This document shows, in pieces, positions 4,739 to 35,042 of a stretch of DNA of 64,000 nucleotides. The stretch comes from a virus. Taxonomy: Duplodnaviria; Caudoviricetes. The position numbers were made by a program, and so were the translations under genes. Location: IMG/VR virus record IMGVR_UViG_3300033067_001375, positions 3,519-67,518 of that record; one strand, written 5' to 3'. Below the pieces are notes generated by a model. The model made no database searches. It was not told where the DNA came from and worked only from the letters and a program-made list of their open reading frames with translations. Each line of letters opens with the position of its first letter. The stretch's first letter is position 1.

Positions 4739-5170
4739 GTGTTCGTTGATGATTACCCGCCGGCTAATTGGTCAGCGGTGCAAAAAACTGACGAGGATCC
4801 GTTTACCAAGCTGGGGCGTGAGGCGGCTGAGGCACGCGAAAAGCGTGTGCTAGATGCGATAGAGGGCGATGATGAAAGTGTATCGCAACCGTGCAAGTTA
4901 TTCTTGCCGCCTATGGGCGTTTCAGAGGGTAACCCTTATCCGCCTCCCCCAAGCCCTCTTGGTGTAACGCGTTGTGAGTGTGGCTGTCACAGTGGCTTGT
5001 GTCTGCATTGCTTCCCGTGTTGTGAGGGGCGTTGCACGTATTGCGGCAACTGGTTCAAGAGTGGCCTGAGGGAACATGCTCAAGCGTGTGAAGGTTGCCC
5101 GCCAGATAAGCCGGCGGCCCCGCCTGATGAGTACGCCAAGCAGCGTGATTTCGGCCCGACAGTTTTGTAA
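4739..5170 (+). CDS. Hypothetical Cys-rich protein
   Basis: CECGCHSGLCLHCFPCCEGRCTYC cluster; the stop codon lies inside palindrome copy 3. Confidence 0.65.
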   Translation: MFVDDYPPANWSAVQKTDEDPFTKLGREAAEAREKRVLDAIEGDDESVSQPCKLFLPPMGVSEGNPYPPPPSPLGVTRCECGCHSGLCLHCFPCCEGRCTYCGNWFKSGLREHAQACEGCPPDKPAAPPDEYAKQRDFGPTVL

Positions 5171-5179
5171 ACGTTTACA
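5166..5179. promoter_or_regulatory. 14-bp palindrome (copy 3)
   Basis: Perfect copy; supplies the TAA of the upstream gene; 17 nt before ATG 5197. Confidence 0.85.
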
Positions 5180-5196
5180 AAGTTTAGGTTGAGGAT

Positions 5197-5769
5197 ATGA
5201 CCAAACGTGCGGGCAAAGGCTCGAAGAATAAACGGCGGTTGGCGCATGCGGAAGCGTTGACGGCGGACAATCTGAGCCCTGAGGAATCACTTGCACTTGA
5301 GCTTGAGGCCTTGCGGTCGGGTTGGCTTAACGGCTCACCAACGTTTGCAAAAACGCGTGAGGCGTTGCTACTCAAAGCAGCTACCAAGGCCTTAAACGGC
5401 AAGTGTGACGATCAAACGTTTATAAAGCTCATGAGAGCCATTGCCCAAACAGAGCACAGAGAGATAGCCCTAAGGCTACAGGCGGCCTCAATTAGCCTTA
5501 GGGCTCAAGGGAAAGGTGGCGATGATTTGCCAGAGCAGCGCGGCTTGCCAGAGCAAAGGGGCGGCTCAACCGTTGTGATCAACAACAACGTGAGCGGACA
5601 AGATACGGCGCCGGCTCAGGTGCCAACGTTCGAAGTGATTCAACAGTTGATTGCCAAAAGAGAAATACGCGATGCCGCCGATAGACGCCCCCAACATATG
5701 CGAGCTCTTGACGCCGCTGGACCTAGCCCAACATTGCAACCCCAAATTCCTACGGCCCCCGCACTTTGA
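5197..5769 (+). CDS. Putative terminase small subunit
   Basis: Helical protein directly upstream of and overlapping TerL; assignment is positional only. Confidence 0.5.
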   Translation: MTKRAGKGSKNKRRLAHAEALTADNLSPEESLALELEALRSGWLNGSPTFAKTREALLLKAATKALNGKCDDQTFIKLMRAIAQTEHREIALRLQAASISLRAQGKGGDDLPEQRGLPEQRGGSTVVINNNVSGQDTAPAQVPTFEVIQQLIAKREIRDAADRRPQHMRALDAAGPSPTLQPQIPTAPAL

Positions 5770-7927
5770 ACTATTGCAACGTGAGTTTCTTGAGACGTTA
5801 CAGCCAGAAGGTTGGGACGTTCTAATAGCTCAGGCGCCGCCCCGTCACGGCAAGAGTGAGTTTTTGTCCCGGTGGGTACCGTCTTGGTTTCATCTGACCT
5901 ACCCAACTGAGCGGTCAATTCTGACCTCTTACGCGCTTGACCTTGCACGCGATCACTCACGCGAAGTGCGCGATAGGGTGCATGAGTACGCGCCGCTATT
6001 TGGTCACCGTGGCATTGACCGAAAGGTGAGCGGTAATGCTGACTGGAAAATTGCAGACTACGGCGGCGGCATGAAAGCGGCCGGGATCCGTGGGGCGATC
6101 ACTGGGCGTGGTGCAAATCTGTTTTTGATTGATGACTACTTTAAGAATGACGAGGAGGCAGTCAACCAAACTCTCAGGGATAAGCAATGGTCTTGGTTTC
6201 AGACGACGGCAACAACGCGATTCGAGCCCGGTTGTAAGTTGATCGTGTTGGCTTGCCTCGTTGGTGATACGCCCGTCGCTATGGCTGACGGCTCAAGCGT
6301 GCCTATTCGTGATGTGCGGCCGGGCGATAGAGTCAAGACGTTTGACGACGGCCGGTTGGCTACTTCTGTTATTCGTAATCATGCCTCAGTTGGGTACGAC
6401 GACGTGTTCCGTTTGACGTTGCAATCGGGTAAAACGGTGACAGCAAACGCGCGTCACCCGTTTTTAGTTGCACGCAATGGAGCTTTGAAGTGGATCAGGC
6501 TGAGAAACTTGACTACCGGGTTGAGAATCGTAACAACAAAGGCCAGTGGGGTAAGTGGAAAGGGAAAACTTGCCAATGGGAAGGTTGCGAACGGCCGGCA
6601 AAGTGCCGTGGATACTGCCATCACCACTACGCGAAGAAACGCACGCTTGACGGCTACCGTGCCCCCTCTCACAATCCGGAATCTCACCGAAAATCAAGGC
6701 TCAAATATCGCTACGGCATTACGGTTGATGACTACAACGCGTTACTCAAAAAACAACGTGGCGTTTGTGCCGTATGCCGTCAACCGCCAAGCGAGCATAA
6801 CACACGCAAACACCAAGGCGGACGATTGTGCGTTGATCACTGCCATGACACTGGAAAGGTGCGAGCCCTCTTGTGCAACGATTGCAACCTTGCCGCCGGA
6901 TACATTAAGACCAGCGCCGCCGCCGCTCAGTTGGCTCGATACCTCAGAGTTTTTGAGCGACTCAATAGTAGCGATTGAGTTCGCCGGCCGGGCCGAAGTG
7001 TTTGATATTGAGATTGAAGGGACGGGCAACTTCATTGCGGCAGGAATGGTAAGCCACAATACGCGCTGGCATGAGGACGACTTGATTGGCCGAATACTCA
7101 AATACGCCCTTGAAGATTCTGAGGCGCCAATGCGTGTGCGTGAGATACGCTTACCCGCGCTAGCTGAGCCAACCGATGAACAGCCCGACCCACTTGGCCG
7201 GAAAACCGATGAGGCTCTTTGGCCTGAGCGTTACAGCACGGCCGCGCTCAAGGCTAAGCGGTCACTCATGGACGGCTATTGGTTCAACGCGATGTTTCAA
7301 CAGCGGTTGACTTCGCACGGGTTCAACGAATGGCCAAGCGAATATTTCTACGGCGTGATGGCTCAGGATGATGAGTGGCCCGATAGGTTCACGATGAGCG
7401 CAACGGCCTTGGATCCAAGCAAAGGGCGCGATGCCAAGAAAGGTGACTTCTCAGGCATAGTCACGGCCGGTTATCACAAAGGCTACATTTGGCTTGACTG
7501 TGACCTTGAGCGGCGGCCGGTTCCAAAGATGATGCGCGACTTGGTTGACTGGAACAACCAGCGACGGCCAACAGTTACAGGCATTGAAGCGGTTGCATTC
7601 CAAGAGCTCTTGGGTACTGACTACGTTCAAGCTCAGATTGAGGCCGGCGGCTATCGTGATGAGCCTGAGCTTATATACAACAACGTGTCAAAGAATCTTC
7701 GCATTGGCAGGATAGGGACGTGGCTCAGGTTGCATATGCTCAAGATCCGCAACACGCCCGGCGGCAAGCTCTTGCTACAGCAACTTAAAGAGTTTCCCAA
7801 CGCGAAGTATGACGACGGCCCCGATGCCGCCGAGATGGCCATACGGCTCTTGCTAACGCTGAGCGAAGCGTTGGCCGAAATCTTCGTTCAGGCCTCACCG
7901 ATGTATACCGAAAGAATTATCACGTAG
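5651..7927 (+). CDS. terL: Terminase large subunit, intein-containing
   Basis: Walker A PPRHGKS, Walker B LFLIDD, coupling motif LA|TRWHEDDL split by the intein, nuclease acidic motifs ALDPS and YDDGPDA. Start may be ATG 5672. Confidence 0.95.
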   Translation: MPKEKYAMPPIDAPNICELLTPLDLAQHCNPKFLRPPHFELLQREFLETLQPEGWDVLIAQAPPRHGKSEFLSRWVPSWFHLTYPTERSILTSYALDLARDHSREVRDRVHEYAPLFGHRGIDRKVSGNADWKIADYGGGMKAAGIRGAITGRGANLFLIDDYFKNDEEAVNQTLRDKQWSWFQTTATTRFEPGCKLIVLACLVGDTPVAMADGSSVPIRDVRPGDRVKTFDDGRLATSVIRNHASVGYDDVFRLTLQSGKTVTANARHPFLVARNGALKWIRLRNLTTGLRIVTTKASGVSGKGKLANGKVANGRQSAVDTAITTTRRNARLTATVPPLTIRNLTENQGSNIATALRLMTTTRYSKNNVAFVPYAVNRQASITHANTKADDCALITAMTLERCEPSCATIATLPPDTLRPAPPPLSWLDTSEFLSDSIVAIEFAGRAEVFDIEIEGTGNFIAAGMVSHNTRWHEDDLIGRILKYALEDSEAPMRVREIRLPALAEPTDEQPDPLGRKTDEALWPERYSTAALKAKRSLMDGYWFNAMFQQRLTSHGFNEWPSEYFYGVMAQDDEWPDRFTMSATALDPSKGRDAKKGDFSGIVTAGYHKGYIWLDCDLERRPVPKMMRDLVDWNNQRRPTVTGIEAVAFQELLGTDYVQAQIEAGGYRDEPELIYNNVSKNLRIGRIGTWLRLHMLKIRNTPGGKLLLQQLKEFPNAKYDDGPDAAEMAIRLLLTLSEALAEIFVQASPMYTERIIT
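6254..7060 (+). mobile_element. Intein (269 aa) in TerL
   Basis: Block A CLVGDTPVAMADGS, block B-like ANARHPFLV, block F VFDIEIEGTGNF, block G VSHN followed by Thr+1. Removing it restores KLIVLA-TRWHEDDL. Confidence 0.95.
6490..6978 (+). CDS. Endonuclease VII-type (His-Me finger) nuclease nested in the -1 frame of the intein
   Basis: CAVC...LCVDHCHDTGKVRALLCNDCN motif; N-terminal CQWEGC...CRGYCHHHY Zn motif; GGAG 7 nt upstream of GTG 6490. Confidence 0.88.
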   Translation: MDQAEKLDYRVENRNNKGQWGKWKGKTCQWEGCERPAKCRGYCHHHYAKKRTLDGYRAPSHNPESHRKSRLKYRYGITVDDYNALLKKQRGVCAVCRQPPSEHNTRKHQGGRLCVDHCHDTGKVRALLCNDCNLAAGYIKTSAAAAQLARYLRVFERLNSSD

Positions 7928-7963
7928 GCGACAAACTTCTGAGCGGTTGCGGCCTTGCATGTT
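7928..7963 (+). promoter_or_regulatory. Class A promoter-like motif (BCGMCNA-N17-GCCTT)
   Basis: GCGACAA-N17-GCCTTGCATGTT upstream of ORF 7980. Confidence 0.6.
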
Positions 7964-7979
7964 AGAAAGTGAGGGCGCT

Positions 7980-8216
7980 ATGGGGCCAACATACCGAAAC
8001 GCGGCTGAGCGAATCCAAAACGCTTGTGATGATTTCCAAGAGTTGATGACGGCCGCGCGTGATTTAGTGGGCGTTATTCATGCTACATCGCTTGGAATGT
8101 CTATTGATGGGCTCATGGATAACAGTACGCCGAAAGAATTTGTTGATGCTTTGATGGATCACAAAGTTTGGCAAACGTTCATTGACGCACTCACAGAGGT
8201 TGAGGACGAAAGGTGA
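7980..8216 (+). CDS. Hypothetical protein
   Basis: GAGGG SD and ATG downstream of the class A motif. Confidence 0.65.
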   Translation: MGPTYRNAAERIQNACDDFQELMTAARDLVGVIHATSLGMSIDGLMDNSTPKEFVDALMDHKVWQTFIDALTEVEDER

Positions 8217-34275: not shown

Positions 34276-34647
34276 ATGAGTTCGTGGAAAGATGGATTGA
34301 TTCTTGAGGGCTTCACTCAGACGGGTTACATGGAGCAAGTTGAAGGCTTGCACCCTGAGCTCAGGTTTGAGTTTTGCCCGGTGCTGTCAGATGACGTTGA
34401 GGTTGCACAAGCCAAGCTTGTTGGCCTCAAAACAACTGAGGTTATTTCGTTCATGGCCAAGGTTATTGCTGACTCACTGACCAAGTGGAGTTTCGGCGAT
34501 GGCAAGCCAACCGTCACGCTAGTTAAGCGTATGCGTCACTCTCAGTTGGCCAAGCTCTATAGCATGGTGATTTGCCAACGGCCGATTGACAAAGATCCGT
34601 TGGCAAGCGATGAGGACGAAACGGTCGAAAGTCAGTTGGGAAAATAA
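34276..34647 (+). CDS. Tail assembly chaperone (G-like)
   Basis: Lies between tube and tape measure; ends in the slippery sequence G GGA AAA TAA. Confidence 0.8.
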   Translation: MSSWKDGLILEGFTQTGYMEQVEGLHPELRFEFCPVLSDDVEVAQAKLVGLKTTEVISFMAKVIADSLTKWSFGDGKPTVTLVKRMRHSQLAKLYSMVICQRPIDKDPLASDEDETVESQLGK

Positions 34648-35042
34648 AGCGGGCTTTTGGCTTGCTGCTCAATCATGCTCACTTGTACTATCGGCCTTGT
34701 GCTCTTTGTAGAGAGTTTCACTTTCAAGAGGACACGGGGCAGGTAGCCAAGAATGGCAGGGATCAACCGATCAAGAGGCAAGGCCCGGTGCCTTGCGAAA
34801 CGAGCCACGGTTGCCCCAAAGGCCATTGGCGTGACGAAATAAAGCTGAAAGCTCATCAACGAAAAGTAATCGACCTTTTTTACGCAAGCCGCAACCACAA
34901 CGTTTTGACGAAAGACGAAAAGCGCAGCCCAATAATCCGTCACTTGTTCGCCTCATTTGAGCAACAACTTGCCACACATGAGCGGACAAATTTAGTTCAA
35001 GTGATCACACTGGCAACGATGAAAAGGGCAACTCAACAATGA
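34638..35042 (+). CDS. Tail assembly chaperone -1 frameshift extension (T-like)
   Basis: Heptamer G_GGA_AAA at 34638-34644 is in phase; the -1 frame stays open to 35042 and has no good start of its own. Confidence 0.75.
   Translation, partial: GKIKRAFGLLLNHAHLYYRPCALCREFHFQEDTGQVAKNGRDQPIKRQGPVPCETSHGCPKGHWRDEIKLKAHQRKVIDLFYASRNHNVLTKDEKRSPIIRHLFASFEQQLATHERTNLVQVITLATMKRATQQ

Follow-up and report, generated by a model that had tools for sequence, protein, structure and literature searches.

Conservation of an internal Shine-Dalgarno sequence and start codon points to separate translation of an Endonuclease VII gene nested out of frame in a phage terminase intein

How is a homing nuclease made when its gene lies wholly inside that of another protein, on the same strand and in a different reading frame? 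The question arises at the terL locus of the virus record IMGVR_UViG_3300033067_001375, in a stretch of 64,000 nucleotides (nt; the whole stretch is hereafter called the window), where the TerL precursor contains an intein and the linker of that intein contains an out-of-frame open reading frame (ORF) for an Endonuclease VII (EndoVII)-type nuclease. An earlier note on this DNA had proposed two routes to its expression, an internal Shine-Dalgarno (SD) sequence followed by a GTG start codon, and a slippery heptamer in phase with the TerL frame at which ribosomes could slip by -1. The first of these routes is strongly supported by conservation, which extends to positions where the intein frame allows synonymous change, whereas the second did not hold up, the heptamer being unconserved, followed by no structure that stands out and composed of the codons for a Gly-Lys pair. 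We suggest, with a probability that we put at roughly 0.8, that the nuclease is mainly translated as a separate protein by internal initiation and not by recoding. The features concerned are the following.

5651..7927, plus strand: TerL precursor ORF, 758 codons, open across the intein; the true start may be ATG 5672 instead of TTG 5651
6254..7060, plus strand: class-1 intein of 269 amino acids (aa), running from Cys1 to His-Asn / Thr+1, with boundaries taken directly from the sequence; it splits the TerL motif LIVLA/TRWHEDD
6479..6482, plus strand: SD sequence GGAG of the nested nuclease, made of an intein Gly codon GGA and the first G of the next codon
6490..6978, plus strand: nested EndoVII-type homing-nuclease ORF, 162 aa, in the -1 frame of TerL inside the intein linker; its GTG start overlaps intein Lys-Trp codons (aaG TGg)
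6562..6568, plus strand: in-phase G_GGA_AAA heptamer, made of nuclease codons Gly25-Lys26 (GGG AAA) and the first base of Thr27; judged incidental

The intein retains an intact splicing domain, with Cys at 6254, His-Asn at 7058-7060 and Thr+1 at 7061, and the TerL frame is open throughout, matching Pfam Terminase_6N (E 1e-6) and Intein_splicing (PF14890, E 9e-14). Segments homologous to its IntN and IntC parts are present at 54 other loci. Between the two splicing halves lies the nuclease ORF, read in frame 3 (-1), 2 nt out of step with TerL; it matches Endonuclease_7 (Pfam PF02945, E 7.7e-19) and several PHROG endonuclease VII families; no Pfam domain was found within the in-frame intein linker. 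An AlphaFold model of the nuclease, built from a 33-sequence alignment, has a mean predicted local distance difference test score (pLDDT) of 85 and is confident from about residue 21. A Foldseek search of the PDB with this model gave no match at E <= 1e-3, the top match being T4 EndoVII (1e7l) with probability 1.00 and a weak E of 2.9e-3. Eight residues, C93, C96, C129, C132, D116, H117, H119 and N133, are invariant across the 33 aligned nucleases, and the window nuclease has every invariant Cys, Asp, His and Asn; we take these to be the Zn-ligand cysteines and the D-H-x-H ... N catalytic residues of T4 EndoVII. Toward the N terminus the same alignment shows no variation at M1, G21, K22 and W23 and almost none at G18 and G25. 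Because identity to the window over the overlap core is 47-63% in the nuclease frame and 25-33% in the host (TerL) frame, the nuclease frame is, on this comparison, the one under sequence selection, while the intein frame is just kept open, with zero stops across the overlap core in 14 of 14 comparisons. The nuclease would presumably drive homing of the intein.

The window reads aat GGA Gct ttg aaG TGg at the proposed start, so that GGAG (6479-6482) is followed by a 7-nt spacer and GTG 6490, as the earlier note had reported; this GTG is the first ATG, GTG or TTG after the nuclease-frame stop at 6430-6432. Besides the loci of isolate phages, about 40 further nested loci came from IMG/VR contigs and 19 more from a scan of GTDB species genomes (L084-L102). 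To compare the junction across the family, 55 distinct nested loci were aligned, namely the window and 54 related sequences from these sources. The start codon of the nuclease is ATG at 45 and GTG at 10 of the 55, and at every one of them (55/55) it runs into TGG, the codon of the invariant intein Trp, in the form nnA/G TGG, even as the intein residue before the Trp varies among K, Q, E, T, R, A, V and S. The sequence GGAG stands at positions -11 to -8 in 32/55 loci, and most of the others have GGGG, GAGG, GGAA or GGGA there. The SD and start of the window match the family consensus exactly. Gene callers run on short contigs independently predict proteins of 153-163 aa from the equivalent Met.

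Since the conserved Gly and Trp belong to the intein, the informative positions are those at which the intein frame is free to vary. No close isolate-phage relative of the IntN segment without a nested gene is available as a control (all the close ones belong to the nested class, and the others are inteins of about 30% identity, many of them in UvsX/RecA-like recombination genes), and the codon usage of the same TerL ORFs was for that reason taken as the synonymous-site control. In 34 distinct contexts the third base of the codon before the Trp is A in 28 and G in 6, never C or T, against expected counts of 13.5 for A, 16.0 for G, 2.8 for C and 1.7 for T (naive binomial P 4e-7, a value that, like the one that follows, ignores shared ancestry among loci). 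The intein Gly at the SD position has the codon GGA in 23/30 cases against 4.8 expected (P 4e-13), and the residue after it is mostly E, V, A or D, whose codons all begin with G; it is this combination of a GGA codon and a G-initial neighbor that yields GGAG at so many of the loci. Ancestry-blind as these P values are, the SD-start constraint holds across very divergent loci and, as read from their sequences, across different residues at the site. Among the window's own genes, GGAG or GAGG occurs 5-11 nt upstream of 13 of 42 crudely assigned starts, compared with 4.8% of random positions, and the modal spacing is 7-8 nt, consistent with use of such a signal by this phage.

From the anatomy, the conservation and the codon-level constraint observed here we infer initiation at GTG 6490. 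The terL mRNA would probably be the template, and GGAG 6479-6482 would direct ribosomes to the GTG, giving the separate 162-aa nuclease. In such a scheme the start codon would be built from the last base of the codon before the Trp and the TG of TGG, and the SD from the intein Gly codon GGA and the G that opens the next codon, with at most background-level slippage at the heptamer farther downstream. Signals written into the Gly and Trp codons of the intein would also explain why every undamaged homologue has its nuclease in the -1 frame of TerL. Folding of the region around the SD and start (6455-6530) was unremarkable (z -0.23 against shuffles), with no sign of a regulatory hairpin. A mini-ORF, ATG GAG CTT TGA (6477-6488), stops a single base short of GTG 6490 and might have served for termination-reinitiation; we discarded this idea, since the mini-ORF is not conserved among the relatives.

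The same architecture was found in a wide range of genomes. Among isolate phages, the best tblastn matches of the nuclease fall inside terL of Gordonia phages (Angelicage, Affeca, Keitabear, Sedona and others), with further matches in terL of Mycobacterium phages (Phlyer, Athena and others); identity to the window nuclease is 48-50% for the four named Gordonia phages and 45% for Phlyer, and in both phage groups the frame of the nuclease again stands 2 nt away (-1) from that of the annotated terminase. Genome contigs of the GTDB scan spread the nested unit over bins of widely separated phyla, including those of Anaerolineae, Bradyrhizobium, Oribacterium/Dysosmobacter, Sulfuritalea and Mycolicibacterium, and it is also binned to Saccharimonadales, Opitutaceae, Geobacteraceae and Caulobacteraceae, plus one bin labelled archaeal. 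On these assignments the class of out-of-frame EndoVII inteins reaches far outside actinophages. No relative with a protein identity above 62% was found in the collections searched, and the conservation of the heptamer, discussed below, was consequently judged across distant homologues.

A subclass of the nested nucleases has the same Trp-overlapping ATG and, ahead of the G-K-W residues, an extra Cys-rich, Zn-ribbon-like N-terminal domain some 40 residues long (L012, L016, L019, L021, L024, L027, L029, L032, L035, L037, L039, L042, L043, L095-L098, L100 and L102). The N-terminal module of the nuclease is thus variable.

The alternative that survives best is that the nuclease is made from a transcript of its own, arising from an internal promoter or by RNA processing, or else by leaderless or otherwise SD-independent initiation, in place of initiation on the terL mRNA via GGAG. 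Leaderless-type GTG initiation has been proposed for a comparable hidden HNH gene with no recognizable ribosome-binding site (PMC11855218), and the start in the window is likewise GTG. Here, however, a well-placed GGAG is present, and it is under synonymous-site constraint across the family, which SD-independent initiation does not predict. As for a separate transcript, a promoter and terminator scan of 5000-8200 found nothing above chance, with 2 promoter sites against 2.0 expected and neither of them 5' of the ORF on the plus strand. We regard this alternative as improbable.

It is also quite improbable, in our estimation, that the nested ORF is an unexpressed relic in this virus, with the intein inherited vertically as a de facto mini-intein. 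The GTG in place of ATG would suit such decay, and three related copies, L007, L083 and L101, are indeed damaged by indels or stops. These copies were looked at as possible natural fusions of the kind that a slip would produce, and each was rejected: in L007, where IntN is in frame with the nuclease, there are several indels and the nuclease can no longer be read through from its own start; in L083, where the nuclease shares a frame with IntC and the C-extein (the protein, P0047, was called as EndoVII-IntC-TerL(C), 231 aa), there are again several indels; and L101, with TerL-N, IntN and the nuclease in one frame, has several indels, a stop inside IntN and a nuclease broken from its own start. 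We read all three as prophage copies in decay or as assemblies prone to indels, and not as genuine in-frame variants. In the window, by contrast, the ORF is intact, the nuclease retains its invariant residues, the Pfam match and the predicted fold are both confident, and the SD and start are exactly those of the family consensus. Moreover, two overlapping frames are unlikely to have both stayed open for 163 codons at 53% GC without selection.

The remaining alternative is programmed -1 frameshifting at 6562-6568. In the TerL frame, phased from 5651, the sequence reads aaG GGA AAA ctt, an in-phase X_XXY_YYZ heptamer, and a -1 slip would read GGG AAA ACT TGC, entering the nuclease frame three codons before the first Cys of the slipped reading (6571-6573). 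The earlier note had these readings right, and saw in them a frameshift switch between packaging and homing. The product would be a TerL(N)-IntN-EndoVII fusion of 442 aa (306 + 136), supplying all or part of the homing nuclease. The proposal draws strength from a second copy of the heptamer, which the earlier note had taken to mark the tail-chaperone frameshift of this phage.

34638..34644, plus strand: G_GGA_AAA, probable tail-assembly-chaperone frameshift site, assigned by layout and synteny; it closes a G-like ORF (34276-34647) with TAA directly after

That reading of the second copy fits its layout, which is the canonical one of G/GT. The -1 frame continues from it to TGA 35040-35042, overlapping ATG 35039 of an 883-aa ORF (ATGA), and gives a trans-frame product of 255 aa; the chaperone ORFs sit between a tail protein (phrog_290) and the 883-aa ORF. 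The G-like ORF, its GT extension and the 883-aa ORF all lack a match in PHROGs, and the site is a probable G/GT-type tail-chaperone frameshift site by synteny and layout only. Frameshifting of this type, at G_GGA_AAG in the lambda G/GT genes for tail assembly chaperones, was reportedly described by Levin and colleagues in 1993, and is said, after Xu, Hendrix and Duda in 2004, to be widely conserved. With the lambda site, the heptamer at 6562 shares its X_XXA_AAN type, its phase and an open -1 frame downstream, and of the four plus-strand copies of GGGAAAA in the window the two that are in phase with a gene are precisely those at 6562 and 34638. Two of the homologues, L043 and L084, also have GGGAAAA at the position of the window's heptamer.

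The resemblance goes little further. Of the 28 loci that share the window's G-K-x-C context, 3 have GGG-AAA (the window itself, L043 and L084, which are not each other's closest relatives), against a chance expectation of 1/8 (P 0.70), and GGG-AAA encodes 5/52 Gly-Lys dipeptides (9.6%) in the nuclease leaders of 34 loci. When the heptamer and the SD are set side by side across the homologues, as the earlier note had envisaged, the SD is thus conserved and the heptamer is at chance level. Nor does the sequence at large favor the heptamer, since GGGAAAA is under-represented in the window (the two strands together have 5 copies, where shuffles have 11.6 +/- 4.0), and about 13,700 codons contain 19 in-phase X_XXY_YYZ heptamers with Y = A or T, where random sequence would give about 27. 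A stimulatory hairpin, for which the earlier note had suggested looking, does not stand out: RNA folds downstream of the heptamer are like those of shuffles (z -0.45 for 6569-6640 and -0.15 for 6574-6620). Unlike the site at 34638, the heptamer at 6562 is followed by no 0-frame stop, and the sequence upstream of it shows no more than a weak GGGG tract (6548-6551). In E. coli, heptamers with no stimulator raise frameshifting 2-10-fold over a background of about 0.055% (PMC4066793).

The fusion itself would be an odd nuclease. The invariant G21, K22 and W23 and the near-invariant G18 all lie upstream of the slip point, so that the fusion would exchange conserved nuclease residues for intein-frame residues, and it would be burdened with about 300 residues of unspliceable TerL-IntN; in L043 a slip at the same position would bypass the extra Zn-ribbon domain altogether. 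Of the features of a programmed -1 frameshift the site has the slippery heptamer, and it lacks the conservation, the stimulator and a product that keeps the conserved residues. Transcriptional slippage was rejected as well, the run of A being just four bases long. The heptamer is, as far as its sequence context tells, incidental, a by-product of Gly-Lys codons and not a selected recoding signal, and a frameshift switch between packaging and homing is not borne out. We hold frameshifting as the source of the homing nuclease to be very improbable. Equally slight are the chances that the choice of GGG-AAA-A was selected in the window and independently in L043 and L084, with a small fraction of ribosomes slipping to make the fusion alongside the conserved internal start; if so, a selected slip would tie the dosage of the nuclease to translation of the terminase, as a second route beside the internal start.

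Several points weigh against internal initiation as we propose it. GTG is a weaker start than the ATG of most relatives, and ribosomes elongating in the TerL frame must cross the GTG site and could occlude it. The conserved intein residues, Gly and Trp, could lie behind part of the conservation of the SD and start, a point that the synonymous-site tests address. Finally, the apparent use of the same heptamer at the tail-chaperone site of this phage makes some slippage at 6562 plausible, most plausibly unselected and well under 1%.

Overlapping phage genes with internal ribosome-binding sites are familiar from phiX174, where E lies within D and B within A. Like these, the window nuclease is a complete shifted-frame gene on the same mRNA with an SD and a start of its own; it differs in that the outer sequence is an intein linker constrained only to stay open and the inner gene is the nuclease of a mobile element. 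Closer to the present case, out-of-frame EndoVII inteins in actinophage terL have been described in a preprint (Gosselin et al. 2025), and the window shares with that class the terL host gene, the intein family, the nuclease family (PF02945 / IPR004211) and the relative frame. It shows all the defining features of the class that were tested (a splicing domain, an EndoVII in the -1 frame and a domain-free, poorly conserved linker), and the phages of the preprint are the best isolate-phage matches of the window nuclease (Angelicage, Affeca, Keitabear, Sedona and Phlyer). Those phages are actinophages, whereas the window virus is not, to judge from a GC content of about 53% around the TerL locus of this virus record and from its TerL C-extein (7061-7924), whose nearest isolate-phage terminases, just 27-29% identical, belong to Brucella, Microcystis and Rhizobium phages. 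A blastn search with terL against isolate phages gave no match. By these comparisons the virus is without a close cultured relative, and its host is not inferable from the TerL C-extein. The preprint does not discuss translation of the hidden gene (the words 'frameshift', 'ribosom' and 'start codon' do not occur in its text), and what the sequences compared here indicate beyond it is the conserved SD and start on intein Gly and Trp codons and the spread of the class past actinophages.

Two further systems are comparable. The ShiLan insertion of mycobacteriophage DNA methylases contains a hidden, out-of-frame HNH gene for which no ribosome-binding site was found and leaderless-type initiation was proposed (PMC11855218), and a cyanobacterial dnaX intein contains an out-of-frame LAGLIDADG gene with putative SD motifs upstream of its start (bioRxiv 10.64898/2026.09.14.751524). 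Both resemble the window in that an insertion whose host frame stays open also encodes, on the same strand but in another frame, a homing-type nuclease with a proposed GTG or internal start; they differ from it in nuclease family and host gene, and where the ShiLan case has no ribosome-binding site the window has a canonical, conserved GGAG-N7 start. As a side observation, one of the sequences recovered here, L046, has an EndoVII-like nested ORF (1026-1649) in the -1 frame of a 796-aa host ORF (103-2493) of a different large-terminase type; this host ORF has no similarity to the window TerL or its intein, and no obvious Hint motifs were seen around the insertion. The nested ORF of L046 may belong to a 'hidden nuclease' insertion like that of ShiLan, with no intein involved.

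The findings offer a caution for overlapping genes in general, as Gly-Lys or Lys-Lys codons readily create slippery heptamers at their frame junctions. For the nested EndoVII class, the codon choices compared here make it clear that the SD and start are held in the Gly and Trp codons of the intein by selection at synonymous sites, and a recoding mechanism is not needed. How hidden out-of-frame homing nucleases are translated is a question that has been raised before (PMC11855218), and the conserved internal SD and start described here bear on it.

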